DNA of 64,000 nucleotides. It comes from Pseudomonadales bacterium (lineage in GTDB: Bacteria > Pseudomonadota > Gammaproteobacteria > Pseudomonadales > IMCC2047). The DNA lies in the NCBI GenBank assembly GCA_041395865.1, contig JAWKZQ010000003.1, positions 69,394 through 133,393 on the forward strand, given 5' to 3'. The notes under the pieces were generated by a model. That model saw nothing but the letters and a program-made list of their open reading frames with translations, had not been told where the DNA came from and did no database searches. Made by a program: the position numbers and the translations under genes. Shown here piece by piece: positions 31,954-52,607 of this stretch (positions within the stretch are counted from its first letter, which is position 1; each line of letters opens with the position of its first letter).

Positions 31954-32127
31954 TTGTCCAGAAATCAACTAATTGTTGAGATTAGCGGCCGTCAATAGCG
32001 GTAAGACCGTTCGGCCTTGAGGTTGGCGAACAGGTAATGGTTACAGCCACCAGGCTTGGCCCGATGCGTACTCATAAGCGAGTTTTTGCAGAGAACGCGG
32101 CAAAATGCCCTGATTCAATATTTTGCT

Positions 32128-32523
32128 TTATTGGTTGTAGATGTAGGCGCAGTACTCGTCATTTCTGGTAAACATCTCACTGTGGTGGTCGACGGTTTCC
32201 AGATAGTTAAGCAGCTCTTCTTCGGTTTTGAAGTGAACAATCTGGCGGTTTTCCTCCTTGAGCTGATAGGTTTCCTCATACAGCCAGATAACGTCTTCGC
32301 GCAGCTTTTTAGGGATGACGATTTGGGTTTCGTCATCATCATTCAGGGTGATCTTCAATTTGCCTGTTTTGTGAGTGGGGCCATGGGCCGCTAATGCGCC
32401 TTTGAAAACCGCTTCATGCGTTTTTCCGTTTACGGAATTAACCTGAACATGCACATTGTTCGATTTTGTCCGGTAAATACAGATATCCGCACCGTCTTTA
32501 CTTTTGAACGAAACCTTATTCAT
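32128..32523 (-). CDS. hypothetical protein
   Basis: ORF with a strong SD (AAGGAGGTGGTC ATG) at the internal start MNKVSFKS. No family recognised. Confidence 0.55.
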   Translation of the reverse strand: MNKVSFKSKDGADICIYRTKSNNVHVQVNSVNGKTHEAVFKGALAAHGPTHKTGKLKITLNDDDETQIVIPKKLREDVIWLYEETYQLKEENRQIVHFKTEEELLNYLETVDHHSEMFTRNDEYCAYIYNQ

Positions 32524-32763
32524 GACCACCTCCTTCGACTTATGTTTTGTCACAAGACACGGTTGGTGCGACTAAATTTAAACTTTATTTTCGATTTGTG
32601 CCAGAACTATCCCCGGTGAGGGGTTTGGGATGATGGGGCGGGGAGGCTGAAAACATCGTGAGAATCGTGAAACTCGCTTTGTGAAAAGGCGCTTCATCAA
32701 TTATTTCTACACAATTTTGAGTTACTATCACACCCTCTAAATGCAACCGCCAGAGGCAATATC

Positions 32764-35364
32764 TTGACCCCATTGGGCCTACCTGTAGAAGCCGTTTTAG
32801 AAAGCCTTAAACAGCAATTATCTGAACGACACGAGGTCGTGCTGGAAGCCCCGCCGGGTGCGGGTAAAACCACCATTGTCCCGCTTGCGCTTTTGGATGA
32901 GCCCTGGTTAAAAAGCCAAAGGCTTAAACACCGAAAAATCCTGATGCTGGAACCGCGCAGAATCGCCACCAAATCGGCGGCGTATCGCATGGCGAGTCTG
33001 TTGAATGAAAAGCCCGGCGAAACCATTGGTTATCGGATGCGATTGGATACCCGGGTCGGCAGGCAAACCCGGGTAGAGGTGATCACTGAAGGGATTCTGA
33101 CACGCATGCTGCAGGATGACCCGTCGCTGGATGAGGTGGGGTTGGTCATCTTTGATGAATTTCACGAACGTAGCCTCGAGTCGGATCTGGCGCTCAGCCT
33201 GTGCCTCAAGGGCCGGTCATTGTTTAGGGGTGATGATGACCCGCTGAAACTTCTGGTCATGTCGGCCACACTCGATAGCACGGGCGTATCGGAATTGTTG
33301 AGTGGCGCCCCTGTTGTGAAAAGTGAGGGCAGGACCTATCCGGTCGATATTATTTACGGACAGGCCATGCAGCCCAAAGCGCGCATCATTGATCGCATGG
33401 TGGCGACCATTAAACGCGCGCTCGATGAGAATCCAACCAGCAGCCTGCTGGCTTTTTTACCTGGGCAGGGCGAAGTCCGCCGCACGGCCGACGAACTTTC
33501 CAACTGGATTTCCGATAGAAAATTACCGGGCATTCACCTGCGCCCGCTGTTTGGCAACCTCTCCATTGAAGAGCAGCAACAGGCCATTGCGCCGCTTTCG
33601 GGTAAGCAGGCCAACGACCAGAAAGTGGTGCTGGCCACCAATATTGCCGAAACCAGTCTCACTATCGATGGTGTGGATGTGGTGGTCGACTCCGGCCTGG
33701 TGCGGGTGGAAAAATTTAACCCGGCAACCGGCATGGCGGGTCTGCATACCGTCAAAATTTCAAAAGCATCCAGTGTGCAAAGGGCAGGGCGTGCCGGGCG
33801 GTTACGTCCCGGCAAGTGCTATCGACTCTGGTCAGCGGATCAACAACAGCAACTCGCCGCGCACAGCCCGGCTGAGATATTAAGTACCGATCTCGCACCA
33901 CTGGCATTGCAATTATTGCAATGGGGTGTCGATAACCCAACCGAGTTAAGTTGGCTCGATGTGCCGCCAACCGGGCACTGGCAACAGGGTATGGCGTTGC
34001 TCAAGTCGCTCGGTGCGGTTAAACGCGAAGCCAATGACTGGGTGTTGACCGGGCATGGACAGGCCATGACGTCATTGCCGGTACACCCAAGGCTCGCCCA
34101 TCTATTACTGTGCGGTGCCGCGGTTGGCTCTGGCAAACCGGCCGCCTTGCTCGCCAGCCTGTTATCGGACCGTGATCCATTTAGCCATGCCTCTTCTAAT
34201 TATGAGAGCCCTGATATTAGTCATCGCCTTGAACTCTTGAGCGGCAAAGCGTCTTGCCCGCCCATGCATCAGGGTTGGCTACATCGCACGCGCCAGCTCG
34301 CCGAACAGTTCGAACAACAGGTCTCCAAAGTAAAACAGCCGGGCTCATTGGCCTATTTGATCACCGCTGAGCAGTTGCCCGGTTACCTGCTGGCCTGCGC
34401 CTACCCAGATCGTATTGCGCGCCGTCGACATTCCGGCGGCTATCAACTTGCTAACGGGCGTAGCGCCAACCTGCTTGGACATCATCACCTGGCTAATAAC
34501 GGCTGGCTCGCCGTCGCGGAAGTTTCAAGCATGCAGGGCGGCAAGGGCGATATTATTCGCTCCGCCGTGAAACTGGATGAACGCCTTTTTGATTCGGCCC
34601 TGAGCGACGCGATTCAGACTGAAACCATCGCCGAGTGGGATAAAAAAACCAATCGTTTTGTCGCCGAAGAACAGAAAAAAATCGGCGCTTTGGTTTTGCA
34701 GCGCACCCGCTTGGACAGCGTGCCCGCCGAGGCCAAAAGCGCCGCATTGATTCAGCATATCCGAAAGCAGGGCCTCAATCTGCTGCCCTGGACCCCGGAA
34801 CTGAAACAATGGTGCGCCAGAGTCTTACTGGTTCGCTCAATAGAGGGGGCCAGTTCAAGTAATAAGCCAGGTGATGAGAATTGGCCGGATGTAAGCGAGG
34901 AGGGGCTGCTCGCCACGCTTGAGGAGTGGCTTGCGCCGTATTTGAACGACGTGAATCTATTAAATGACTTCAAGAAAATTAACTTAACGGACGTGTTGCA
35001 GGCATCGCTGCCCTGGGAGCAACAGCAGGCGCTTAGCGAATTGGCGCCGACCCACCTTAAAGTGCCCTCCGGTTCAAACATTCGCATCGACTACACCGAG
35101 TCGCCGCCCGTGCTGGCGGTAAAACTCCAGGAAATGTTCGGTTGCGAGCAAAGCCCAGCCGTAGTGGCCGGTAAAGTACCACTGCTGGTACATCTCCTGT
35201 CGCCCGCGGGCAGGCCGCTGCAAGTGACGCAGGACCTCGCCGGTTTCTGGCGCACCTCGTATCACGATGTCAAAAAAGACATGAAGGGCCGTTATCCCAA
35301 ACATCCCTGGCCGGATGATCCACTGGTGGCGATTGCCACGCGCAAGACGAAAAATCGTCTTTGA
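32764..35364 (+). CDS. hrpB: ATP-dependent RNA helicase HrpB (DEAH box)
   Basis: GAGKTT, DEFHERS, SATLD, TNIAETSLTI, QRAGRAGR, and the HrpB C-terminal domain (...FWRTSYHDVKKDMKGRYPKHPWPDDP). Similar to E. coli HrpB along its length. TTG start. Confidence 0.95.
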   Translation: MTPLGLPVEAVLESLKQQLSERHEVVLEAPPGAGKTTIVPLALLDEPWLKSQRLKHRKILMLEPRRIATKSAAYRMASLLNEKPGETIGYRMRLDTRVGRQTRVEVITEGILTRMLQDDPSLDEVGLVIFDEFHERSLESDLALSLCLKGRSLFRGDDDPLKLLVMSATLDSTGVSELLSGAPVVKSEGRTYPVDIIYGQAMQPKARIIDRMVATIKRALDENPTSSLLAFLPGQGEVRRTADELSNWISDRKLPGIHLRPLFGNLSIEEQQQAIAPLSGKQANDQKVVLATNIAETSLTIDGVDVVVDSGLVRVEKFNPATGMAGLHTVKISKASSVQRAGRAGRLRPGKCYRLWSADQQQQLAAHSPAEILSTDLAPLALQLLQWGVDNPTELSWLDVPPTGHWQQGMALLKSLGAVKREANDWVLTGHGQAMTSLPVHPRLAHLLLCGAAVGSGKPAALLASLLSDRDPFSHASSNYESPDISHRLELLSGKASCPPMHQGWLHRTRQLAEQFEQQVSKVKQPGSLAYLITAEQLPGYLLACAYPDRIARRRHSGGYQLANGRSANLLGHHHLANNGWLAVAEVSSMQGGKGDIIRSAVKLDERLFDSALSDAIQTETIAEWDKKTNRFVAEEQKKIGALVLQRTRLDSVPAEAKSAALIQHIRKQGLNLLPWTPELKQWCARVLLVRSIEGASSSNKPGDENWPDVSEEGLLATLEEWLAPYLNDVNLLNDFKKINLTDVLQASLPWEQQQALSELAPTHLKVPSGSNIRIDYTESPPVLAVKLQEMFGCEQSPAVVAGKVPLLVHLLSPAGRPLQVTQDLAGFWRTSYHDVKKDMKGRYPKHPWPDDPLVAIATRKTKNRL

Positions 35365-35367
35365 GTG
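35250..35367 (+). repeat. hrpB 3'-terminus repeat, copy 1 (functional gene end)
   Basis: Last ~115 nt of hrpB including stop 35362-35364. It recurs at 36470-36593 and 39066-39172. Confidence 0.9.
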
Positions 35368-35430
35368 GTCAGGAGTTAGAAATAGGGGTAGTTAAAACTC
35401 TAATAAGTCTTAATTATTTCAGAGTTCAGG

Positions 35431-36255
35431 TTAGGTTATTTTACGAGTGCTTTTGTGACTTCTTCTGAAGAAGAAATAAAATAGAGATGCGATAAAAAGA
35501 TAGCCTGTGCTTGGCAACGAGAGTTCCCTTACAGCTATGTCGTCAAAAAACACACTATTCCCTCCGCGGGTGAAACCGAATAAACCAACTCCACCTGACG
35601 AATGAGTCTCGTCTTTAGCGACAAGTGTACTAATAAGAAAATTGTCTCGTCCTAAAGCAGTTTGCCAAAGTGAAGCTTTAATCCAGTTATCAAACGTTTC
35701 TAATTCTATGAAGAAATTGTTGTCTTGAGGGCTGATATTAAATTGGGAGGTGCTTGCCAATACGTTTTCTTGCCGGACGACACCAGCGTTTAGTGTTGCC
35801 AATGTGAATGTAGCAGTCGTAGCTCCGTAAAGGATATGCGCAATGTATCCATCTAGAGCAAATCCACTTCCTGATAGCCTCGCCATTAGCCCGCTAGAGC
35901 GGTAGCCAAATGTATCTGTGATACCTACACCAACGTAACCTGAGATAACAACATTTTTATAGCTTTCTGATAGAGGTGTTGTTGCGTAGCTATGGGTTGG
36001 CGCAATGGAATTCCCTTCGTAGTAGCGCAATTCTTTATCGCCCCTGGATGAAATAGGGAGAGCTGGATTCGTGGGGGCACCTTGAGAGGCTACTAAAGAG
36101 TCTGGTTCAAATATTCCTCCACCTGATAAAAATGTATTGGAGAAATGTGTATCCGATACTGTTGATGCATCATCAAACGTTTCAATGAACCCAGCATTTG
36201 AATTCATTGAACAAAAGCTTAGCGCTAATGCTGGAATAATTTTCCCTAGTTTCAT
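35431..36255 (-). CDS. secreted jelly-roll/lectin-like protein with a C-terminal sorting signal (LPSTG + TM + RRSHK)
   Basis: Start at MKLGKIIP (ATG 36255, AGGGAA upstream) with signal peptide ALALSFCSMNSNA. The C-terminus is ...FFDDIAVRELSLPSTGYLFIASLFYFFFRRSHKSTRKIT: a sorting motif, a hydrophobic helix and a basic tail. The gene and its flanks are visibly AT-rich compared with neighbours. Confidence 0.7.
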   Translation of the reverse strand: MKLGKIIPALALSFCSMNSNAGFIETFDDASTVSDTHFSNTFLSGGGIFEPDSLVASQGAPTNPALPISSRGDKELRYYEGNSIAPTHSYATTPLSESYKNVVISGYVGVGITDTFGYRSSGLMARLSGSGFALDGYIAHILYGATTATFTLATLNAGVVRQENVLASTSQFNISPQDNNFFIELETFDNWIKASLWQTALGRDNFLISTLVAKDETHSSGGVGLFGFTRGGNSVFFDDIAVRELSLPSTGYLFIASLFYFFFRRSHKSTRKIT

Positions 36256-36376
36256 TATGACATTCCCTATCAAATAAATTTTTATGAATTAACAGCTACT
36301 TTATTAAAGCGCTATATTATATATAGCTGCATCAGGCAAAATTCGTTCCAAATTGTTTATCTTTAAATTAAAATCA

Positions 36377-36409
36377 ATGTATTAGCTTGTTTGTAATAAG
36401 CTAATACAT
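36377..36409. other. perfect 12-bp-stem inverted repeat upstream of the islet gene
   Basis: ATGTATTAGCTT-gtttgtaat-AAGCTAATACAT, ~120 nt upstream of ATG 36255 in AT-rich DNA. A second small inverted repeat, GTTCAAA-cact-TTTGAAC, follows ~15 nt further on. Confidence 0.6.
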
Positions 36410-36469
36410 ATCAACTTGTAAAATGTTCAAACACTTTTGAACTGCTGAAACTGCAATAATTGGTGACCG

Positions 36470-36593
36470 TTTTGAGTGCTCCTCTTATCACGGTGTAAAA
36501 AAGACATGAAAGGCCGCTACCCCAAACATCCCTGGCCGGATGATCCACTGGTGGCGATTGCCACGTGCAAGACGAAAAATCGTCTTTGAGTGG
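36470..36593 (+). repeat. hrpB 3'-terminus repeat, copy 2 (non-functional remnant)
   Basis: Hand alignment to 35250-35367 gives about 7 differences, including a 1-nt deletion that creates ...gtgTAAaaaag. A 45-nt stretch (cccaaacatccctggccggatgatccactggtggcgattgccacg) is identical, and the ...cgtctttgagtgg end is conserved. Confidence 0.9.
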
Positions 36594-36703
36594 CTCGTAG
36601 TTGAAACGGGCTGAGATTAGAGACAAAAATTCCAGCTTGGGTTTATGGCTTTGCTCCGACCTCAGTTTCCAGGCTCCAAATCGTTTGGAGAGTGGCCGCG
36701 CCG

Positions 36704-38878
36704 CTAACTAACCGACTTGGGCAGGTTCTCTCGTCCCCAAACCATACGCTCACGCAGGTAGGGCAGGGGGCGTTGAGGGTTCGTTGATTCGAACTCTCTG
36801 GCCAGCCGGTGGCCTTCAAAAATGGCGTCGCCCGTGAGTCTGGGCGCATAGCAGTCACCGGCCTGATAGATGCCTTTTATGCCTTCCTTCTGCCACTCGT
36901 CCTGACGTTCCCGCAAGGCTTTATAAAGCGCATCGTTAGACAGGCGCGCGGTTACAAGGATCACGGTGTCTGCTTCCAGGAGCTCTGTTTCGCTGCCAAC
37001 TCTGCGTGGGTACATACCAACCTTGGGAGCGGTGGTGCGTTTGGAGCCGTCGCGGGATAGATTGAAAAGTTTCAGTTTCACCACATCGCCCGGCTCACAT
37101 TCTTCAACCCAGCAGCCACCATATTGCGCAATTTTTTTTTCATGCAGCATGCGGTGCAGATTGGGCGCTTCCAGGGTGTACTCCATGAGCGGTGCTGCTG
37201 CCGCAAACTGGGTCACAATACTCACCTGTTTGCCCAGGTCAGCCATCATTTCGGCCAAGCTCACACCGGTAAAATAACCATCGGCATCGAGAATTACGAC
37301 ACGGTGGCCAATTTCTTTACCCGCCAGCACCTGTTCAGGTGTCGCAAATTGTGGCGTTGATGCATCGACGCCGGGCAAAGATCCCATGGTCACGTGGCTA
37401 AAACCATCCGTCGCCCACCGGGAACCGGTGCAAAGTACCACCTTGTCGGCCCCGTAGGTGAGAATGTCATCGGCACTGAGCCGGGTGTGAGGGTGCACTT
37501 CGACATTCTTGAGTTTATCCAGCTGGCCCTTGCAATAACTGGTAATGCGGCCCCATTCGCTCATGCCGGGGTAACGCACCACGTCACGGATATGGCCGCC
37601 CACTTCCTGCTCGGCTTCGCAAAGATGCACCTGGTAACCTCGCATGCCAAGCACACGTGCGCACTCCATACCTGCAGGCCCGGCACCTACCACAAGCGCT
37701 GAACCTGCATCCTGAACCTGGTCAAACTTTTCCGGGTGCCAGCCGCGGCGGTATTCCTCATTGGCAACCGGGTTTTGCGTGCAGACCAAAGCCGCGCCAC
37801 GCTCCCAGCGGGAGATGCAAATATTACAGCCAATGCATTCACGAATGTCTTCGGGGCGACCTTCTTCAATTTTTCTTGGCAGGAAAGGGTCGGCAATCGA
37901 AGGGCGCGCGGCGCCGATGATATCGGCCTGTCCGGAACGAATAACCTCCACCATGTCATCCGGGTTGGTAAAGCGCCCGACATTGATGATTGGCACATTG
38001 GCAACGTCCTTAAAGCCGCGGGTAAAGGGTGCCTGGTGGTTGGTTTTGTAGAAACGTGACGGCCCCGCATCTTCGCCCCATTCCTCATAGGTGCTTAAAT
38101 TCAAGTCCCATAAATCGATCAGCCCCTTTTGGGTGACGTGCTCGACAAATTTAAGCCCTTCATCCTGCGCCTGAATGCCATCTGGCCCCAGAATTTGGTC
38201 GACAGAAAAACGCACGCAAACAGCCGCTTCGCCATTCAGCGAAGCTTTCACTTTTTCGATGGTTTCTATCCAAAAACGCGCCCGATTTTCGAATGACCCC
38301 CCATAACTGTCGGTCCGCTTGTTGTGGAACCGGGACAGAAATTGCACCGGTAAAACACCGTGCGAGCCATACACGTAAACGATATCAAAGCCGGCTTGCA
38401 CAGCTCGCTTTGCGGCTTCAACGTACATATTTTGAAGCTCAGCGATTTCATAAACATCCGGCTCATGTGAATAGCAGGCGATGGTCCAGTCCGATGTGGA
38501 TTGTGAAGGGGAACTGGGCGCGACCCGGGATTCGAGATTTGCCGCCGCTGCGCCCATGTGCCACAGCTCGACACCGGCCAGGGCGTCCCATTTGTGAAGG
38601 CTATCGCACATATGCCGAAGATTAGCGACATCACCCTCATCCCAAAGCGAAGCCAGCGTGCTCGGTGACGTATCGGCCTGATGATCGATGGAACAGGCTT
38701 CGGTGCAGATGCCGCCCCAGCCGCCCTCGGCCTTCATGCCGCGAAAGCCCGCTTGTGTACCTGGGCGTTCAGAGCCTGCGCCGTTGCAGTGGGGCACCTG
38801 ATAGAAGCGGTTTTTTAAAGTCTTCGGGCCAATTTGGATGGGTTCAAAGAGGATGTCGTAGTTCGGATCGCGAGCCAT
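36704..38878 (-). CDS. trimethylamine/dimethylamine/histamine dehydrogenase-family FMN + 4Fe-4S flavoprotein
   Basis: The N-terminus ARDPNYDILFEPIQIGPKTLKNRFYQVPHCNGAG is nearly identical to my recollection of the TMADH N-terminus, including the FMN-linking Cys. It also has the CIGCNICISRWE....VCTQN Fe-S motif, RRGWHPEKF, and a C-terminal ADP-binding domain (VVGAGPAGMECA). Confidence 0.85.
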   Translation of the reverse strand: MARDPNYDILFEPIQIGPKTLKNRFYQVPHCNGAGSERPGTQAGFRGMKAEGGWGGICTEACSIDHQADTSPSTLASLWDEGDVANLRHMCDSLHKWDALAGVELWHMGAAAANLESRVAPSSPSQSTSDWTIACYSHEPDVYEIAELQNMYVEAAKRAVQAGFDIVYVYGSHGVLPVQFLSRFHNKRTDSYGGSFENRARFWIETIEKVKASLNGEAAVCVRFSVDQILGPDGIQAQDEGLKFVEHVTQKGLIDLWDLNLSTYEEWGEDAGPSRFYKTNHQAPFTRGFKDVANVPIINVGRFTNPDDMVEVIRSGQADIIGAARPSIADPFLPRKIEEGRPEDIRECIGCNICISRWERGAALVCTQNPVANEEYRRGWHPEKFDQVQDAGSALVVGAGPAGMECARVLGMRGYQVHLCEAEQEVGGHIRDVVRYPGMSEWGRITSYCKGQLDKLKNVEVHPHTRLSADDILTYGADKVVLCTGSRWATDGFSHVTMGSLPGVDASTPQFATPEQVLAGKEIGHRVVILDADGYFTGVSLAEMMADLGKQVSIVTQFAAAAPLMEYTLEAPNLHRMLHEKKIAQYGGCWVEECEPGDVVKLKLFNLSRDGSKRTTAPKVGMYPRRVGSETELLEADTVILVTARLSNDALYKALRERQDEWQKEGIKGIYQAGDCYAPRLTGDAIFEGHRLAREFESTNPQRPLPYLRERMVWGRENLPKSVS

Positions 38879-39065
38879 GCTTGTTCTCCTTCTAAGTCGG
38901 AATACGGGCTAAGGCCTTTGTGTTTCAATGGCTTAGCGTACGCCTCATGAAAACCTTGGGCAAGCTTGATCAGCTTGCCGGGACATTAAAGGAGGTGGCT
39001 TGAATATTTAATAACCGATGTTAGCCCTTTAATTTGCAGTTGTTGCCGGCAAAGTACTGTTGCTT

Positions 39066-39172
39066 GCGCACCTGGTATCACGCTTTTAAAAAGGATATGC
39101 AAGTCCGCTATCCGAACCATCCCTGCTCGATGATCCACTGGTGGCGATTGCTTCCGCAAGACTAAAAATCAC
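39066..39172 (+). repeat. hrpB 3'-terminus repeat, copy 3 (diverged remnant)
   Basis: gcgcacctggtatcacgcttttaaaaaggatatgcaagtccgctatccgaaccatccctgctcgatgatccactggtggcgattgc... aligns to the hrpB end. It would encode RTWYHAFKKDMQVRYPNHP.. (hrpB has RTSYHDVKKDMKGRYPKHP..) and then loses frame through a 1-nt deletion. Confidence 0.8.
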
Positions 39173-39270
39173 ATGTAACTTATCGGTATTAATAAAAGGG
39201 GCATACTTAATAAAGGTTCTTAGGCCCGTAGTTTGTGTTACGGACCTAATTATCTGGATTAACTGGGCCG

Positions 39271-39930
39271 CTAACTTTTCCACATGGAATTCAAAATTGT
39301 GCAGCAGAAATTCCCACGTTTGAATTGCTTATCTTTTAATTCGAGAACGTCAGCTTTTACATTTCCAAATGTTGAATCGGGTTTGTGTTTAATACCTTCA
39401 TAAAAGGCATTGATAATGTCTTCTTTGAACGCCGGTGTTCTAGGGTGTGCATCAACCACAGCTTCTCTTTCTTTGTCAGTGTAATCCGAGTAGGTCAAAC
39501 CGAGAACATCCATCTCAACGCCCGCAGTTACTAAAGCAATTACCGGGTGCATATGACAGGGAATACCTGGTGTTGTATGTAGAGCGATGGCCGACCAAAC
39601 CGTATCAATATCATGTTGAGAGATATTATGAGTCTTCAGGAAATCCCGGGCAGCATTGGCGCCGTCTACTTCAAAACGCTCGCACGCACTGCTGTGACTA
39701 GGCATTAAGCCGATATCGTGGAACATAGCTCCGGTATACAGAAGTTCCGGATCAAACGTTAACCCCTTCTTCGTGCCTGCAATTGCACCAAAATAAAAGA
39801 CTCTGCTTGAGTGGTTAAACAGCAATTCAGTTGCCGTGTCCCTTACAAATTCTGTGACTTGGTTGGCGAGTAGGCTATCTGGAATGAAAACGCCGGTTTC
39901 CTGGTAAATCTTATTGGCTGCTTGGTTCAT
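39271..39930 (-). CDS. HD-domain metal-dependent phosphohydrolase-fold protein (cyanamide-hydratase-like)
   Basis: NHSSRVFYFG...MFHDIGL...ALHT motif arrangement of HD-domain proteins. Confidence 0.7.
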   Translation of the reverse strand: MNQAANKIYQETGVFIPDSLLANQVTEFVRDTATELLFNHSSRVFYFGAIAGTKKGLTFDPELLYTGAMFHDIGLMPSHSSACERFEVDGANAARDFLKTHNISQHDIDTVWSAIALHTTPGIPCHMHPVIALVTAGVEMDVLGLTYSDYTDKEREAVVDAHPRTPAFKEDIINAFYEGIKHKPDSTFGNVKADVLELKDKQFKRGNFCCTILNSMWKS

Positions 39931-40076
39931 GTCATTGGTCCTTCAAATTATGCTGTGGTTGAGACGCCAATATATTGCTACGATATTTTGTCCTCAATAG
40001 ATGAAAACGTAAGATCTAGCCAATTATTCAACCTTTTCTGCCATATTGACCTTGAGGTGAAATCTGGAGTTTTATT

Positions 40077-41069
40077 GTGAGTACTGAACTTGTTGTTGCG
40101 ATAGTTATTCCTCCGCAAGCACAGCCCCTAGATATATCGGGTCCTTTGGCTGTATTTAGGGAAGCAAATAGGCAGTTCTCAGGTAGCGAGAAGTACCAGG
40201 TTGTTTTGCTGTCGACGGAAACGTCCACCACGTTTAATGTTGATGGCATGACCGTAAAGGCAAATGCTTCTATTACGGATGAACAGCTCACCATCGATAC
40301 GTTATTAGTTGCAGGTACAGACGCGTATCAGCAAGCGTTTGATATGAACCATTTTCAACAGTGGTTACAGCTTAGGGTGAGGCGGGTTCGCCGTTATGGA
40401 TCGGTTTGTACGGGGGCGTTTTTTCTTGCTGAAGCGGGGTTACTGGACGGAAGAAGGGCAACTACGCATTGGGAACATGCCGATGAGCTTGCTTCACGTT
40501 ACCCGCGGGCGGAGGTATTCCCGGACGCTATTTATATCCAGGATGGTTCTCTTTATACATCGGCAGGGGTGACGGCAGGTATCGATTTGGCGCTCAAATT
40601 AGTCGAGGATGACCTCGGCCATGAGCTGGCTCTAAAGGTAGCGAAAAGATTGGTTGTATTTTTGAAGCGTCCAGGCGGGCAATCCCAATTTAGTGCACAC
40701 CTCGCTGCACAAGCGAGTACCGAAGGTCGTATTTCTCGTTTACAGGCCTGGATTCTGGATAACCTGTCAGCCGATCTCTCCTTATCGGTTCTTGCTTCAA
40801 AAACCGCAATGAGTGTGCGTAATTTTAGCCGGGTTTTTCAGCGCGAAGCGGGTTATACCCCAGCTGATTTTGTAGAGCTAAGTCGGGTGGATGCAGCTAG
40901 AAGATATCTGGAAGACAGCGACTTATCTCTGCAGCGAATAGCCACGTTGTGTGGGTTTTCAAGCTCGGATGTTATGCGGCGAACATTTTTGCGGCGCATT
41001 ACCATCGGGCCAAAAGAGTATCGCAAACAATTCCAAATTGTTGAGTGCGAGCCGAAAACAAAACCTTAA
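40077..41069 (+). CDS. GlxA-family transcriptional regulator (DJ-1/PfpI domain + AraC HTH)
   Basis: An N-terminal DJ-1-like domain (GSVCTGAFFLAEAGLLDGRRATTHW) and a C-terminal AraC-type HTH (VRNFSRVFQRE.GYTPADF......R..LE.SDLSLQRIA..CGFSS...MRR.F). GTG start; divergent from the HD gene. Confidence 0.85.
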   Translation: MSTELVVAIVIPPQAQPLDISGPLAVFREANRQFSGSEKYQVVLLSTETSTTFNVDGMTVKANASITDEQLTIDTLLVAGTDAYQQAFDMNHFQQWLQLRVRRVRRYGSVCTGAFFLAEAGLLDGRRATTHWEHADELASRYPRAEVFPDAIYIQDGSLYTSAGVTAGIDLALKLVEDDLGHELALKVAKRLVVFLKRPGGQSQFSAHLAAQASTEGRISRLQAWILDNLSADLSLSVLASKTAMSVRNFSRVFQREAGYTPADFVELSRVDAARRYLEDSDLSLQRIATLCGFSSSDVMRRTFLRRITIGPKEYRKQFQIVECEPKTKP

Positions 41070-41173
41070 AGCGAAGGGGCTTTCTGCTGGCTCACGGAAC
41101 AAAACCCAGCCGTAAAAGACATAATTGATCTATGCGAGCAACTTAATACCCATGACAGCCCAATGGAGACGCT

Positions 41174-42031
41174 ATGAGTCACGAATACAGCCCGCCGAAG
41201 GTTTGGACGTTTGATGCTGAAAGTGGGGGCACCTGGGCTAAGACAAATCGCCCTGAGGCCGGTGCCACGCACCAGGCAACACTCCCGCAGGGGAAGCACC
41301 CCATTCAGCTTTACTCATTGGCAACACCGAATGGCCAGAAGGTTGCCATTATGCTTGAGGAACTGCTAGCGCTAGGCGATCAGGGGGCTGAGTATGATGC
41401 ACACCTGATAGACATTGGCGAAGGGGATCAATTCTCCAGCGGTTTTGTTGCGGTTAACCCTAATTCCAAAATCCCTGCTTTGATCGACCGTTCCGGTGAA
41501 AGCCCGGTCCGGGTATTCGAGTCCGGCGCGATCCTGCTGTATTTAGCCGAAAAGTTCGGGCACTTCTTGCCCAGGCAAATGGCGGAACGGACGGAAGCGC
41601 TTAACTGGTTGTTCTGGCTGCAGGGCGCTGCGCCTTTTTTGGGCGGTGGCTTTGGTCACTTCTACGCCTATGCGCCTACAAAAATGGAATACCCCATCAA
41701 CCGCTATGCCATGGAAACGAAACGCCAGCTTGACCTGCTGGATAAACAACTGGCATCGCACCGCTTTATCGCCGGGGATGAATACAGCATCGCAGACATC
41801 GCTATTTGGCCCTGGTATGGTAGCCTGGTACGCGGCAGGCTTTATGATGCGGCCGACTTTTTAGAGGTGCAGTGCTATAAAAACCTGCAACGCTGGGCGG
41901 AAGTGATCTGGCAACGCCCGGCTGTGCAGCGCGGAAGGATTGTAAACAGAACTTGGGGCGAACCCTGGGAGCGCCTTCCTGAAAGGCATGAGGCGTCAGA
42001 GATTGATGCGGTTTTGGCGCTTAAAAACTAA
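41174..42031 (+). CDS. yghU: Nu-class glutathione S-transferase / disulfide-bond oxidoreductase YghU
   Basis: Close full-length resemblance to E. coli YghU as I recall it (PPKVWT...GKHPIQLYSLATPNGQKVAIMLEELLALG, DQFSSGFV.VNPNSKIPAL, NWLFWLQGAAPFLGGGFGHFY). Confidence 0.85.
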   Translation: MSHEYSPPKVWTFDAESGGTWAKTNRPEAGATHQATLPQGKHPIQLYSLATPNGQKVAIMLEELLALGDQGAEYDAHLIDIGEGDQFSSGFVAVNPNSKIPALIDRSGESPVRVFESGAILLYLAEKFGHFLPRQMAERTEALNWLFWLQGAAPFLGGGFGHFYAYAPTKMEYPINRYAMETKRQLDLLDKQLASHRFIAGDEYSIADIAIWPWYGSLVRGRLYDAADFLEVQCYKNLQRWAEVIWQRPAVQRGRIVNRTWGEPWERLPERHEASEIDAVLALKN

Positions 42032-42098
42032 CGGTTAAATCCCTGTTTGAGGGCCAGCTTGAATCGTTAATACTCATACAGCCTCCCGCAATCCTAGT

Positions 42099-42692
42099 TT
42101 AAGGCGTAACAACGCGGAGGCTTTCCACCCAAATCAACTCGCAAGCGCCATTCCCGGTATCGTTGCGCGTCTGTGAACTGATCCAACGCCAGCCGTCAGT
42201 CGCTGTCACCTTCACTAAGCTACCGGATATTTCAATAATCTCGCCTTGCTGGACGCGCTCGATATCACTTTTTATGGAATCATTCGCGGGGATCAGGTGC
42301 ATATTGGCACTGTGCGTTTCTATTTCATGCCTCGGTATCGGAAAGGACTCAACGCGCCAACGATAAAAGCGGTTCGATTGTGAAATCTCAATGTTATCCA
42401 GCACGCTTTCATCCGACATTTTGCCCCAACCTAACGCCAGGTCTGTTGGGGAAAGGTCGGCTTCACGCCCTATGTAGTAATTTTCCTTGGCCAGCACTTT
42501 GGCTTTTATATGAAACTTCGCCAATTCCGTGATGGTGTATTCGTCATCTTTGTAAGTAACCGACGGGCTCCTGCTTTCCTGATAGGGCGATTCACTCGCA
42601 AACACGCCGGGCCCAAGGGTCACTTGGCCTGGGGTGTTGAAGAGCTTCCAGCCAACGCCCAGTATCAACAGTAAAAATAGTACTTTCTTCAT
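42099..42692 (-). CDS. hypothetical secreted/membrane-anchored protein
   Basis: N-terminal hydrophobic segment (VLFLLLILGVGW). No family recognised. Confidence 0.55.
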   Translation of the reverse strand: MKKVLFLLLILGVGWKLFNTPGQVTLGPGVFASESPYQESRSPSVTYKDDEYTITELAKFHIKAKVLAKENYYIGREADLSPTDLALGWGKMSDESVLDNIEISQSNRFYRWRVESFPIPRHEIETHSANMHLIPANDSIKSDIERVQQGEIIEISGSLVKVTATDGWRWISSQTRNDTGNGACELIWVESLRVVTP

Positions 42693-44186: not shown

Positions 44187-44507
44187 TTATACCGATAAAT
44201 AAAGAATTCCGTCTTCAACCTTATGCTCAATCTTCTTAAGTGGGCTTTGGTTCCCTTTTTCCAGACATTCACCATTCTCGAGATTGAACCGCCAAAAGTG
44301 CATGGGACACACCAACGTCATGCCCTCAATAGCATCACAGGGAATGTTCACCGCCTTATGCGGGCAGATGCTATCAAACACCTGAAACGTCTCATCATCC
44401 CTCACGACAAAACAGGCTTTTTCAGCATATTTAAACCGTGACGCACCCTGTTTTACGTCATCAACGTCGATTAGTTTGAGCCACTGGGTTTCGTGATTCA
44501 TATTCAT
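44187..44507 (-). CDS. small Rieske [2Fe-2S] protein (NirD-like)
   Basis: CPH (CPHKAV) ... CPMH (CPMHFWRF) Rieske ligand pairs in a 106-aa protein. Confidence 0.8.
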   Translation of the reverse strand: MNMNHETQWLKLIDVDDVKQGASRFKYAEKACFVVRDDETFQVFDSICPHKAVNIPCDAIEGMTLVCPMHFWRFNLENGECLEKGNQSPLKKIEHKVEDGILYLSV

Positions 44508-44630
44508 TCCATTTGACGCTTAGGGTGTAGGGCCAGAGTAAATAAAAAAGGGGGGGATTGAAAATATAATGGCCCTTACAATTCCTTTGATACGACTCTG
44601 CTGACTTGCCCCCGATTTTAGGGCCACTAC

Positions 44631-45485
44631 TTACTTAGTAAAATCCAGTTCATTGATTGTTGGTTTATTGGGTTTTCCTGTCAATTTCTGGTCACGATAA
44701 CAAGCTGCAAATTCAGCCGGTGTCATATACTCCAAGGCCGAGTGAGGTCGATTCTCGTTGTAGTCCTTTCGCCATTCACTAATCAGGGCTCTCGCATGAT
44801 GCAAATCCGTAAACCAATGCTCATTCAAGCATTCATCCCGGAATTTGCCATTAAAGCTTTCGATGTAGGCATTCTGTGTCGGCTTGCCCGCTTGTATTAG
44901 CTTCAGCTCCACATTCTTTTCATAAGCCCACTGATCCAGTGCCTTACCTGTAAACTCAGGGCCCTGGTCTGTCCTGATGGCCGCTGGATACCCTCGAAAC
45001 TGCGCTATCGCCTCCAACGTACGAACAACCTGCTCTCCACAGATACTGTGAGCCACAGGTATATCCAGCGACTCCTTGGTGAAATCATCCACCACTGTCA
45101 GCGTTTTCAGTCGTCGTCCATTCGCCAGTGCATCCATTACAAAATCCATTGACCAGACTTGATTCGGCGCGCTTGGTAACTCGAGCGGTTGGCGTTCCAC
45201 AGCAATACCTTTACGGCGTTTACGTTTGCGCACAGCTAATGCGGCTTCATTGTATAACCGATATACCCGTTTATGGTTGACCTCAACGCCTTCACGCCTT
45301 AGCAGAGCATGTAGGCGTCGGTAACCAAAGCGACGACGTTCATTCGCAAGCTCGACCAAGCGTGCTTTAAGTGCCAGGTCGTCTCCCTGTTTCTCAGAAT
45401 GGTAACTGAGCACTGAGCGCGACAACCCCACAAGCCGACAGGCACGACGCTGGGAAATAGGTGTTTCTTCCTGCATCGTGACCAC
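44631..45485 (-). CDS. IS3-family transposase OrfB (DDE integrase domain)
   Basis: RRFGYRR...L.REG..VNHKRV.RLY, WSMDF, TDQGPEF, a DDE-region segment NAYIESFNGKFRDECLN and RPHSAL. Its frame is -1 relative to orfA, consistent with an OrfAB frameshift fusion. Confidence 0.9.
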   Translation of the reverse strand: MVTMQEETPISQRRACRLVGLSRSVLSYHSEKQGDDLALKARLVELANERRRFGYRRLHALLRREGVEVNHKRVYRLYNEAALAVRKRKRRKGIAVERQPLELPSAPNQVWSMDFVMDALANGRRLKTLTVVDDFTKESLDIPVAHSICGEQVVRTLEAIAQFRGYPAAIRTDQGPEFTGKALDQWAYEKNVELKLIQAGKPTQNAYIESFNGKFRDECLNEHWFTDLHHARALISEWRKDYNENRPHSALEYMTPAEFAACYRDQKLTGKPNKPTINELDFTK

Positions 45486-45508
45486 AGCCGCACGCTTATC
45501 CTGTGAGG

Positions 45509-45787
45509 TTAGTACTTTCGGTTCAATGCAGCCTTCAGCGCATCTGCATCAAGCATCGATTCGGCAAGCAGACGCTTCAATTTCGCATTTTCTTCTTCGA
45601 GCTGTTTAAGGCGTCGCACATCCTGTGTATCCATGCCACCAAACTTCTTACGCCAGGTGTAAAAGGTCGCGTCTGATATGCCATGCTTTCGGCAAATCTC
45701 TGTCACCGGCACGCCGGCTTCGCCCTCTTTCAAAATAATAACAATCTGCTCGTCGGTGAATCTTCTTTTCATGTCCGCTTTCTCCAT
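45509..45787 (-). CDS. IS3-family transposase OrfA (HTH)
   Basis: MKRRFTDEQIVIILKEGEAG.PV.EICRKHGISDATFYTWRKKFGGM......RLKQLEEENAKLKRLLAE is the typical IS3/IS407 OrfA. The start could be ATG 45787 or 45772. Confidence 0.9.
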   Translation of the reverse strand: MEKADMKRRFTDEQIVIILKEGEAGVPVTEICRKHGISDATFYTWRKKFGGMDTQDVRRLKQLEEENAKLKRLLAESMLDADALKAALNRKY

Positions 45788-46031
45788 TATTGGCGGACTT
45801 TACTAAGTTCAGAGTGGCCCGGCTATAGGGGAGCAGGTCAGTGTCCGACTTTTTTGAAGGATTGCCCGGTGTGTGAGCGCAAGGCGTTGAAGTGCTTGAA
45901 TAAGGAAGAAAAAACTGATTGATCAATGGATTATCCGTTTGGGTTAGCCATTTGCGCTCAAAAAATCTGATCGTCATTTTATGGTGGATGCCCCATAATT
46001 TAAGACCCGTCCATATGCAAAAGGTCGGTCT

Positions 46032-50506: not shown

Positions 50507-51262
50507 ATGGACCCTATTTTTTATTACATTCTGCTGCTGGTAACGGGCTTGATTGCGGGTGTTATTAACACGCTCGCAGGCGGTGGGTCGAATTTGACCG
50601 TTCCTGCCTTGATGATGATGGGAATGCCGGCCGATGTTGCCAATGCGACTAACCGATTAGGTGTCGGCCTGCAGTGTGTGGTGGGCGTACGCGGGTTTAA
50701 GCGACACAATAAACTGGATATGAGCGATGCCGTGCCGATTGTCGGCATGACGCTCGGTGGCGGCTTGGTCGGTTCGCTGGCGGCTTCTTATCTGCCTAAC
50801 ACATATCTCAAGCCCGTTCTGCTTGGCGCTATGGTGACTATGGCGCTGATTATCCTTATTCGCCCCTCTATTGTTATGCCGGAGCCTGGCGAGCCGGTAT
50901 TTCGTCTTTCAGAGCGTCGCGGAGCAAAGTGGATTCTGTTTGTGGCGGGTATTTATGGCGGCTTTGTTCAGGCCGGTGTGGGTTTTATTCTGATTGCGGC
51001 GATTGCCGGCTCATTACGCTACGACCTGGTGCGCACCAATGCCTTAAAGATGCTTTGCACGATTGGTTTTACATTGATCGCGTTGACGGTATTTATTGCC
51101 CGCGGCCAGGTGCAATGGGTGCCGGGTCTGGTGCTGGCCTGTGGGACTATGGTTGGGGCGCATTTTGCCGTAAAGATGGCGTTAAAGGTGAGTCAGAAAG
51201 CGCTGAAATGGTTTTTGTTCGTCATGACATTGTTTGCCTGCGGAGCGGCGATGCTGACGTGA
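50507..51262 (+). CDS. TauE/SafE-family anion exporter
   Basis: A polytopic protein with the G.I.G.INT.AGGGS pattern at the N-terminus and an internal duplication typical of TauE/SafE. Confidence 0.75.
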   Translation: MDPIFYYILLLVTGLIAGVINTLAGGGSNLTVPALMMMGMPADVANATNRLGVGLQCVVGVRGFKRHNKLDMSDAVPIVGMTLGGGLVGSLAASYLPNTYLKPVLLGAMVTMALIILIRPSIVMPEPGEPVFRLSERRGAKWILFVAGIYGGFVQAGVGFILIAAIAGSLRYDLVRTNALKMLCTIGFTLIALTVFIARGQVQWVPGLVLACGTMVGAHFAVKMALKVSQKALKWFLFVMTLFACGAAMLT

Positions 51263-51271
51263 TGGGAAAAC

Positions 51272-51302
51272 AAAAAAGGCCGTCGATTGACGGCCTTTTT
51301 TG
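51272..51302. terminator. bidirectional rho-independent terminator
   Basis: AAAAAA-GGCCGTC-gatt-GACGGCC-TTTTTT between convergent genes. Confidence 0.8.
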
Positions 51303-51326
51303 TATCAAGTTTTTGGCCTGTGAGAG

Positions 51327-52607
51327 CTAGATATTTTTTAACGCCTGGCGTACCGAAGCCAGTTTGACGCAGGTGCAGAACACCTCCATCGTCAGTTCGA
51401 TTTCTTCCAGACTTGGGAATGAGGGCGCAAGGCGGATGTTGCGGTCCTGGGGGTCATTTCCATAGGGGAATGTGGCGCCAGCCGGGGTTAACTTAACACC
51501 AATTTCGCCTGCCAGGGAGACAACCTGTTTGGCCAGGCCGGGCCGTGTATTGACGGATACAAAATAGCCGCCTTCAGGGGTTTCCCAGTTCAGAAGATCG
51601 TTGCTGCCAAATTCGGCTTCCAGCTTTTCCAGAACGGCGGCGAAGCGGGGGAGCAGCAGTGCGGCATGTTTTTTCATATGGGCTTTCAGGGCGTCGATAT
51701 CCGGAAGGAAGCGCATATGACGCAGCTGGTTGACCTTGTCTGGGCCGATCAGTGAAGCGCCAAGGCGTTTTTTGAATTCCTTGAGGTTCGAGCCTGTTGC
51801 GGCCATGAAGGCGATGCCTGCACCGGCAAAGGTGATTTTAGAGGTGGAGGCAAACTGCAACATGGTGTTTTCCGTGCCGTATTTTTTGCACAGATCCATG
51901 ACGTTGGAGAGTGCGGGGGCGCCGTCGCTTAAATCGTGCACGGCGTAGGCGTTATCCCAGAAAATACGGAAGTTGGAAGGGGCGATGCGCCCTAACTGAG
52001 CGATACGCTCCACAACCTCGTCGCTGTAGACGATGCCTGTCGGGTTAGAAAAGCGCGGGACACACCACATGGCTTTGATGTTGCGGTCGTTGCGGATCAA
52101 TTCTTCCACTTGATCCATGTCCGGGCCTTCGGCCGTCATGCGTACCGGGATCATTTCGATGCCTAAATCTTCACAAATGAAGAAGTGGCGGTCATAGCCG
52201 GGGGAAGGGCACAGGCATTTGATTTGCCCTTCGGTTTGCCAGGCTGTTCCGGGGCCGTCAGGGCCGAAAAGGAAAGCAAAGGTCATTGCCTGGCGCATCA
52301 TGGTCAGGCTGCTGTTGCCACCGGCAATAATTTCATCAATGGATACGCCCAACAGGTCGGCACCCAGTTGGCGTGCTTCTTCAATACCTTCCAGACCGCC
52401 GTAGTTACGCGTGTCGGTCCCATCCAGGGAGCGGTAATCGCCCTTGAGAATGCCGTCCAGACAATTTGAAAGATCCAGTTGTTGGGGGGAGGGCTTGCCT
52501 CGGGTTAAGTCCAGGTTTAACTGTTGGGCCTCCAGTTCTGAGTAGCGGGCAGCCAGTTCTGACTCCCATTGCTGCAGCTGTTCTTTGCCGGCTTCGTTAA
52601 GGTGCAA
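51327..52607 (-). CDS. PLP-dependent aminotransferase (class I/II fold, AspC subgroup-Ic-like)
   Basis: 426-aa ORF with LDLTRGKPS..QLDL, NYGG..G and STSKITFAGAG (PLP-lysine context). TTG start. Confidence 0.7.
   Translation of the reverse strand: MHLNEAGKEQLQQWESELAARYSELEAQQLNLDLTRGKPSPQQLDLSNCLDGILKGDYRSLDGTDTRNYGGLEGIEEARQLGADLLGVSIDEIIAGGNSSLTMMRQAMTFAFLFGPDGPGTAWQTEGQIKCLCPSPGYDRHFFICEDLGIEMIPVRMTAEGPDMDQVEELIRNDRNIKAMWCVPRFSNPTGIVYSDEVVERIAQLGRIAPSNFRIFWDNAYAVHDLSDGAPALSNVMDLCKKYGTENTMLQFASTSKITFAGAGIAFMAATGSNLKEFKKRLGASLIGPDKVNQLRHMRFLPDIDALKAHMKKHAALLLPRFAAVLEKLEAEFGSNDLLNWETPEGGYFVSVNTRPGLAKQVVSLAGEIGVKLTPAGATFPYGNDPQDRNIRLAPSFPSLEEIELTMEVFCTCVKLASVRQALKNI

Follow-up and report, generated by a model that had tools for sequence, protein, structure and literature searches.

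Stacked modules behind the helicase gene hrpB: putative serial displacement of a gene's 3′ end in a Pseudomonadales bacterium and its relatives

Several families of mobile DNA enter bacterial chromosomes at the 3′ end of a gene: phage 21 and e14 integrate at icd, SGI1 and its relatives at trmE, ICESt1/3 together with cis-mobilisable elements at fda, and staphylococcal cassette chromosome (SCC) elements and pseudo-SCC at rlmH. Additive islands, the flexible islands of Alteromonas among them, occur at tRNA genes. Arrays of another kind form behind Rhs, CdiA and type VI secretion system (T6SS) genes: behind the intact gene stand truncated copies of its own 3′ end, each with its own downstream module; the truncation points vary, there is no integrase, and new modules enter beside the intact gene while older ones are pushed outward. 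Rhs and CdiA orphan modules were reportedly proposed, by Jackson in 2009 and Poole in 2011, to arise by homology-facilitated illegitimate recombination. For T6SS immunity arrays and Rhs orphan arrays this route has been put forward as well, with later spread by ordinary homologous recombination (Kirchberger 2017, PMC5361080). In the tycheposon islands of Prochlorococcus, partial copies of the target gene lie between successive insertions and newer insertions push older ones deeper into the island (bioRxiv 10.1101/2020.12.28.424599). Here we describe an array of the Rhs/CdiA/T6SS layout behind hrpB, the gene of an ATP-dependent helicase, in a stretch of 64,000 nt from a Pseudomonadales bacterium (GCA_041395865.1, contig JAWKZQ010000003.1, positions 69,394 to 133,393). 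This stretch is henceforth referred to as the window, and its own numbering is used throughout.

Many gene-gain hotspots in bacteria lack an integrase, and gene entry at such sites is mostly inferred indirectly. At hrpB the scars are still legible – truncated copies of the gene end, foreign alleles and cut-offs specific to each event – and they suggest that the modules entered through one-sided homology. We consider it moderately probable that the hrpB 3′ end serves as a recombination anchor behind which foreign modules have been stacked singly, without a dedicated integrase: a process of serial 3′-end displacement. Support for displacement anchored by homology comes from the allelic nature of the displaced copies, from their variable left boundaries, from a rise in divergence relative to a close relative, and from a Rieske gene that shows the same layout.

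Copies of the hrpB end and occupancy of the site

The window carries one intact hrpB (Pfam HrpB_C, 4e-56; DEAD, Helicase_C and CON_HrpB also matched), the product of which is 99% identical to the homolog P0001 and has more than 8000 homologs. The original prediction, made from the sequence alone, held that the end of this gene occurs three times in the same orientation; alignment and profile search confirm this, at positions close to those proposed (Table 1). Copy 1, the functional end, aligns with copy 2 at 93% identity across 117 nt (35252-35368 against 36478-36593, E=4e-43) and with copy 3 at 82% across 114 nt (35243-35356 against 39059-39170, E=2e-22), and profile searches widen all three to the limits given in the table. 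Some 22 nt beyond the stop codon are still homologous in all three copies. The reported 45-nt identical core is correct for copies 1 and 2. Copy 2 has indeed lost a single nucleotide, but the premature stop codon that is then reached is TGA, not TAA. Copy 3 is, as proposed, much the more diverged of the two, but has suffered two 1-nt deletions instead of one; its stop codon is nonetheless kept at the homologous position. No fourth copy was detected upstream of the GST gene in a profile search of the window, even at E<=10, and no Rfam family matched in 32000-42500.

A 23-nt core, GATGATCCACTGGTGGCGATTGC, occurs exactly three times in the 64 kb and never in 100 shuffles. It was considered as the core of an attachment (att) site and dropped: at 82% identity a perfect run of this length has an estimated P of ~0.1-0.2, and the core encodes the conserved peptide PDDPLVAIA.

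Close relatives were taken from a protein database and a metagenome scan, the GTDB species-representative collection having returned HrpB of 60% identity or less only. Two loci of the same species (L081 and L082, 99% HrpB identity) carry hrpB, the flavoprotein gene of the second islet, copy 3 (99% conserved in L081) and the same downstream genes; the first islet and one repeat, 1225 nt in all, are missing. A locus at 89% identity (L083) has a single hrpB end, followed by an unrelated gene for 186 aa and DUF413, and in two loci at 82-83% (L088 and L091) the GST gene comes straight after hrpB. Three Joint Genome Institute (JGI) assemblies at 84% (L084-86) share an array of their own: hrpB, hipBA, a 266-nt copy of the hrpB end, two secreted-protein genes, a 273-nt copy, and GST. 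Finally, at 83% identity, L104 has hrpB, a gene with a weak PEP-CTERM match, and a 415-nt copy. The site is polymorphic, with different cargo in each lineage, and the behaviour is limited to one clade. An alignment of the hrpB-downstream region of relatives, which had been suggested as a check, finds presence/absence polymorphism: single copies in L083, L088 and L091, and no first islet in L081 and L082. The claim of a serial insertion hotspot behind hrpB is borne out: empty, one-islet and two-islet states all exist, other lineages have other cargo, and copies further downstream show more decay.

Outside this clade the picture is uniform. A second copy of the hrpB end was found in none of ~55 metagenome loci (58-80% identity, at least 1.5 kb of downstream sequence) and none of 72 genome loci, and in no GTDB species-representative locus is the hrpB end duplicated. 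Two short HrpB_C proteins encoded on long contigs (P0179, P0203) were examined as possible displaced copies and rejected: they are frameshifted full-length genes. A separate observation concerns the contig start of JAOBKB010002734.1 (GCA_025450675.1; positions 1-700 of locus L168), where 54 nt of unrelated sequence are followed by a hrpB 3′ fragment of ~645 nt; the next gene encodes a PQQ/Laminin_G protein of 2402 aa. The fragment may be another displaced copy, with a left boundary at about -645.

Table 1. Coordinates of the features at the hrpB locus and of related elements (window numbering unless a locus is named)
Feature	Position	Strand	Remarks
hrpB, intact ATP-dependent helicase gene	32764-35364	+	866 aa counted from first TTG (putative start)
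Copy 1, functional hrpB 3′ end	35241-35385	+	final ~122 nt, stop 35362-35364, plus ~22 nt conserved post-stop
Islet 1	35386-36466	-	AT-rich; one orphan open reading frame, 35431-36258/36273 (-), with signal peptide and LPSTG + hydrophobic + basic C-terminus
Copy 2, displaced, frameshifted hrpB 3′ end, hybrid	36467-36609	+	93% identity to copy 1
PE-A, degenerate ~65-nt palindromic element copy	36603-36673		profile match E=5e-16; after hrpB stop in window lineage and L084
Islet 2 cargo, FadH/OYE-type Fe-S flavoprotein	36704-38878	-	724 aa; Pfam Oxidored_FMN 9e-83, OYE-like_second_a-b, Pyr_redox_2
Copy 3, oldest displaced hrpB 3′ end	39042-39202	+	profile search E=7e-19; 82% identity to copy 1
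Third inserted module	39271-41069		HD-domain protein 39271-39930 (-); AraC/DJ-1 regulator 40077-41069 (+); Pfam
GST gene, ancestral downstream neighbour of hrpB in clade	41174-42031	+	directly 3′ of hrpB in L088/L091
IS3-family element, two copies	44602-45844, 60031-61108		inverted to each other; 86% identical, bracket ~14 kb
PE-A/PE-B copies	window 36603-36673; L084 4088-4156, 8744-8800; L104 1969-2039; L166 12634, 13801		

Origin and boundaries of the displaced copies

The substitutions that separate the copies are not those expected of neglected duplicates. In L104, 24 of 414 sites differ between copy 1 and copy 2 and 17 of these 24 differences are synonymous, which corresponds to a synonymous divergence (pS) of 0.17 and a ratio of nonsynonymous to synonymous divergence (pN/pS) of 0.13. 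The pN/pS of the L084 copies is 0.25-0.31; in the window it is 0.21 for copy 2 and 0.27 for copy 3 (pS 0.44), each against copy 1. Functional hrpB ends of different lineages differ from one another with pS 0.16-0.46 and pN/pS 0.04-0.10. As the copies have diverged mainly at synonymous sites, and pS is at the between-lineage level, the divergence would mostly have accrued in working genes of separate lineages. A nearest-allele comparison places all copies within the allele diversity of the clade. Judged by their substitutions, the displaced copies are thus diverged alleles from other lineages, not decayed local duplicates, and some pseudogene decay was added to them afterwards. Tandem duplication in situ was discarded on the strength of the pN/pS values and the unrelated flanks. 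Decay grows with distance from hrpB: in the window it has gone further in copy 3 than in copy 2, and in L084 copy 3 carries an in-frame stop while copy 2 is intact. Such a gradient fits insertion next to hrpB.

Copy 2 of the window is a composite. Its left ~35 nt have codons typical of the 83% clade (TCC TCT TAT CAC), the sequence TCCTCTTATCAC matching that clade, and its right part and downstream flank are those of the window lineage, the flank being equal to that of L081. A copy that is foreign on the left and native on the right is the hybrid that a single crossover would produce. The coding part of copy 1, by comparison with the hrpB end of L081 (which is free of islet 1), is identical but for one single-nucleotide polymorphism. 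In L084, the last copy runs on into the native hrpB-GST spacer of L088.

The two edges of the duplicated segment behave differently. Both left edges in the window lie at -122; those in L084 lie at -250 and -269, and the one in L104 at -415 nt. No short identical core is common to the left junctions, and repeat length ranges over 115-415 nt. On the right, every copy ends ~20-30 nt past the stop codon, where lineage-specific downstream DNA starts. This edge is constant, with a motif that is loosely conserved, but it falls where conservation of the gene ceases.

Because copy 1 is native-like, the left part of copy 2 foreign, and the flank after copy 2 native when compared with L081, the exchange at islet 1 would be placed in the right part of the repeat, either inside the identical stretch of 45 nt or in the 27 nt that precede and surround the stop. 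Such a position fits a single crossover of the chromosome with a molecule that carried an hrpB fragment; a crossover at the left boundary, as by an element that brings a replacement end, would not fit unless L081 were a revertant. When 22764-44546 is compared with L081, the differences per 500 nt number 0-4 as far as about 33.7 kb, 7-10 over the final 1.5 kb of hrpB, and 4-37 beyond the repeats. A rise of this kind across the junction is what would be expected near a recombination junction.

Cargo, palindromic elements and neighbouring genes

Five islets were counted across three lineages (the window, L084-86 and L104). No tyrosine or serine recombinase is encoded in these five or in the scanned open reading frames (ORFs) of the window (64 kb, four ORFs at 11.4-15.2 kb left out), and Phage_integrase, Resolvase and Recombinase have no match in the called genes of L081-L084. 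The original prediction, that neither islet of the window carries an integrase, thus extends to all five. A hrpB 3′ fragment was found in no phage genome and in no IMG/VR contig, and the literature searched contains no report that names hrpB as an att site. The only mobile-element gene found in the window scan is an IS3-family transposase (rve/HTH_21) at 44631-45485, 5.4 kb away; synteny between L081 and the window stops exactly at this first IS3 copy (44546). The islets are flanked by direct repeats of 115-415 nt that come from hrpB, not by the terminal inverted repeats and short target-site duplication of an insertion sequence or transposon, and the IS3 copies lie elsewhere.

The cargo is diverse – an orphan ORF, a flavoprotein, hipBA, secreted proteins and a PEP-CTERM protein – and of mixed orientation. 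Islet 1 (1.1 kb) has a GC content of 0.29-0.45 against ~0.56 in the flanks and a single ORF, in agreement with the AT-rich single-gene segment first described between copies 1 and 2. The predicted surface protein with a C-terminal sorting signal stands in part: the C-terminus does look like such a signal (LPSTG, a hydrophobic stretch, then RRSHK), and would resemble a sortase-type signal more than PEP-CTERM, but no Pfam or NCBIfam family recognises the protein. It has only two homologs among 5.8 billion proteins: an identical one in a Pseudomonadales metagenome-assembled genome (MAG) at NCBI, and one of 50% identity (L165) in an unrelated context with no hrpB fragment nearby.

The single gene between copies 2 and 3 had been assigned to the TMADH family, and its Oxidored_FMN and Pyr_redox_2 domains do form the architecture of 2,4-dienoyl-CoA reductase (FadH) and TMADH; the top NCBIfam model falls below its own cut-off. 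The flavoprotein gene is present in L081 and L082 and absent from L083, L088 and L091. In a distant lineage (L156, 872-3100; 59% HrpB identity) a convergent flavoprotein gene, its product 41% identical to that of islet 2, lies directly behind hrpB, an order that may be coincidental or may be of the donor type.

Beyond copy 3 lies a further module, which encodes an HD-domain protein and an AraC/DJ-1 regulator. It has no hrpB copy on its right side and is not found between hrpB and GST in L088, L091 or L084. Homology to the ancestral hrpB-GST spacer begins only at 41097. In L084, GST directly follows the last hrpB copy, with the same intergenic spacer as in L088 and L091. Relative to the hrpB-GST arrangement, the whole stretch of the window from the hrpB stop to GST (5.8 kb) is additional.

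Palindromic elements of ~60 nt with GGGG...CCCC outer stems (PE-A and PE-B) occur at islet junctions. PE-A stands right after the stop in L084, in degenerate form after copy 2 of the window, and immediately to the left of the displaced copy in L104; in the ~2 Mb of DNA examined it was found only at hrpB-end loci. It folds into 22-bp hairpins in L084 and L104 (z about -5), while the version in the window folds poorly (z -0.3). PE-B adjoins the last hrpB copy in L084, flanks an FRG gene behind hrpB in L166, and occurs again at L084 13794. Some junctions have no such element, as at the right end of the hipBA islet. The elements could be terminators, break-prone sites or recombination sites. Elsewhere in the window, a near-perfect palindrome of 34 nt (51270-51303) lies between the convergent genes for TauE (which ends at 51262) and an aminotransferase (which ends at 51327); it is probably a bidirectional terminator.

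The layout of gene, islet and second gene end is not confined to hrpB. L084 contains an intact Rieske gene (10782-11172) followed, in the gene's own orientation, by an islet of ~830 nt and a nearly full-length pseudogene copy of 90% identity (12000-12403). The islet has an ORF for a 102-aa zinc-ribbon membrane protein. The homolog in the window is at 44187-44507.

Mechanism and relation to described arrays

Serial 3′-end displacement at hrpB could proceed as follows. Donor DNA from a related lineage, beginning within the hrpB 3′ region and carrying the donor's downstream genes, would pair with the resident hrpB via RecA-type homologous recombination. Its far end would be joined without homology (homology-facilitated illegitimate recombination), or a circularised fragment would enter by one Campbell-type crossover. 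The outcome would be a new module right behind an intact hrpB, with the truncated hrpB 3′ copy and the older modules pushed downstream. The history of the window would then comprise at least two events with duplication, the flavoprotein module arriving first and the AT-rich orphan-gene module next; the HD/AraC module probably represents an earlier single event without duplication. Once in place, the direct repeats would let modules loop out, re-enter and pass between strains by flanking homology. We infer from the arrangement of the sequences both the enzymology (RecA, together with either end joining or a circular intermediate) and the direction in which each event ran.

Several points weigh against serial displacement. 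Displaced copies are found only at HrpB identities of at least ~82%, in 3-4 of ~10 lineages, and in 0 of ~125 more distant loci with downstream sequence; such confinement to one clade would be unexpected for a generic process, and a lineage-specific factor is possible. Copies 2 and 3 of the window share a left boundary (-122 ± 3 nt) and the two copies in L084 start 19 nt apart. Random illegitimate joins rarely coincide, and therefore either a repeat unit inherited through circle excision and re-entry, or a preference for the site, is needed; shared boundaries may be inherited as modules loop out between existing repeats and re-enter. The junction palindromes could be sites for some enzyme. L081, too, can be read in two ways that fit equally: it may represent the ancestral state, or it may have arisen by deletion, through recombination between copies 1 and 2.

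Some of these same points favour a recombinase. The hrpB end had been proposed as an att site for a recombinase that acts in trans; an enzyme encoded elsewhere would recognise this end, or the palindrome after the stop, and the islets would be integrase-less cassettes, comparable to the cis-mobilisable elements at fda, pseudo-SCC at rlmH and Xer-dependent elements. Confinement to one clade, the coinciding left boundaries at -122, the constant right boundary with its loose motif and the palindromes beside several junctions, with PE-A restricted to hrpB-end loci, would all follow, as would islets that are uniformly small (1.1-2.5 kb) and all without an integrase; the comparison with L081, moreover, puts the islet-1 exchange near the stop codon. 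Yet the duplicated hrpB segment is long and its length differs by event, the left junctions have no common short identical core, and neither the scanned ORFs of the window nor any islet holds a recombinase gene. The hipBA islet has no palindrome at its right end and the one in the window is degenerate, the cargo is of mixed orientation, the Rieske gene has the same layout, and no paper in the literature searched names hrpB as an att site. On balance the proposal is not supported, given the variable left ends, an exchange near or after the stop, the lack of a local recombinase and the Rieske layout, and we regard it as unlikely. A dedicated cassette system without integrase genes, in which the hrpB stop region together with PE-A/PE-B is the site of a recombinase or hairpin-processing enzyme encoded elsewhere and islets of 1-2.5 kb travel as circles with an hrpB-end homing fragment, is quite doubtful; if true, the clade would have an integron-like platform for gene capture, with a housekeeping gene as its anchor.

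The islets had alternatively been seen as what is left of larger islands or prophages that once had their own integrase and a replacement hrpB 3′ end, later deletions having taken all but one or two cargo genes. Precedents for the replacement end are phage 21 and e14 at icd and SGI1 at trmE; elements that integrate at gene 3′ ends do leave end duplications and push older elements outward, tycheposons stack serially at tRNA genes, and the stop that copy 3 retains at the homologous position is what an end that once functioned would have. What makes such decay very unlikely is that five independent islets in three lineages keep both flanking repeats but no integrase fragment, that left boundaries are not fixed, and that no phage or viral contig has an hrpB 3′ fragment; furthermore, it is copy 1 that equals the hrpB end of the strain free of islet 1, with copy 2 foreign or hybrid, the opposite of replacement-end integration unless L081 is a revertant. 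Most improbable of all is tandem duplication in place with divergence and gene replacement, or a chimera of strains joined at the hrpB end in metagenome assembly. The window does come from a MAG, repeats are classic sites of assembly error, and strains with and without islet 1 exist. But the copies have diverged mainly at synonymous sites and to the between-lineage level, which excludes recent local duplicates; the sequences 3′ of each copy are mutually unrelated; each truncated copy has a unique left junction that is necessarily real DNA; and the longest identical stretches, 45 and 27 nt, are short for a mis-join in the assembly graph. Multi-copy layouts recur, besides, in independent assemblies: the three JGI metagenomes (L084-86), two Logan runs (L081/82) and L104.

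If serial displacement is correct, the locus would offer, across several lineages, a natural set of states from empty through one and two to three modules in which homology-facilitated gene addition outside toxin loci could be tested, and it would argue against reading duplicated 3′ ends of core genes automatically as att sites.

How, finally, does hrpB compare with the systems already described? Elements that integrate at gene 3′ ends resemble it in the direct 3′-end repeats that bracket the insert, in tandem accretion, and in the existence of integrase-less members; but they have a fixed short att core and a recombinase in the array, neither of which was found among the long repeats and variable left ends of the hrpB arrays. 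Relative to additive islands at tRNA genes, the hrpB arrays have a protein-coding target and much longer repeats, and they contain neither integrases nor remnants of them. Integron cassette arrays share with it small, mostly single-gene, integrase-less units at a fixed point with partly palindromic repeats between them, but the repeats at hrpB are fragments of a coding gene, the scanned ORFs include no intI, the palindromes lack attC-type cores (RYYYAAC...GTTRRRY), and cargo orientation is mixed.

The closest likeness is to the displacement arrays of Rhs, CdiA and T6SS genes. The window, L084-86 and L104 all have an intact gene followed by truncated 3′ copies, each with its own module; these copies are allelic (pN/pS 0.13-0.31, with pS as between lineages) and their truncation points vary. 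What differs is the anchor and its load: instead of a variable toxin tip with immunity cargo, there is a housekeeping helicase with a conserved C-terminus, and the cargo (an orphan secreted protein, a flavoprotein, hipBA) is unrelated to it, so that no toxin/immunity selection is at hand to explain its retention. The hrpB array works like the displacement arrays of Rhs, contact-dependent inhibition (CDI) and T6SS loci, yet is not a member of that group.

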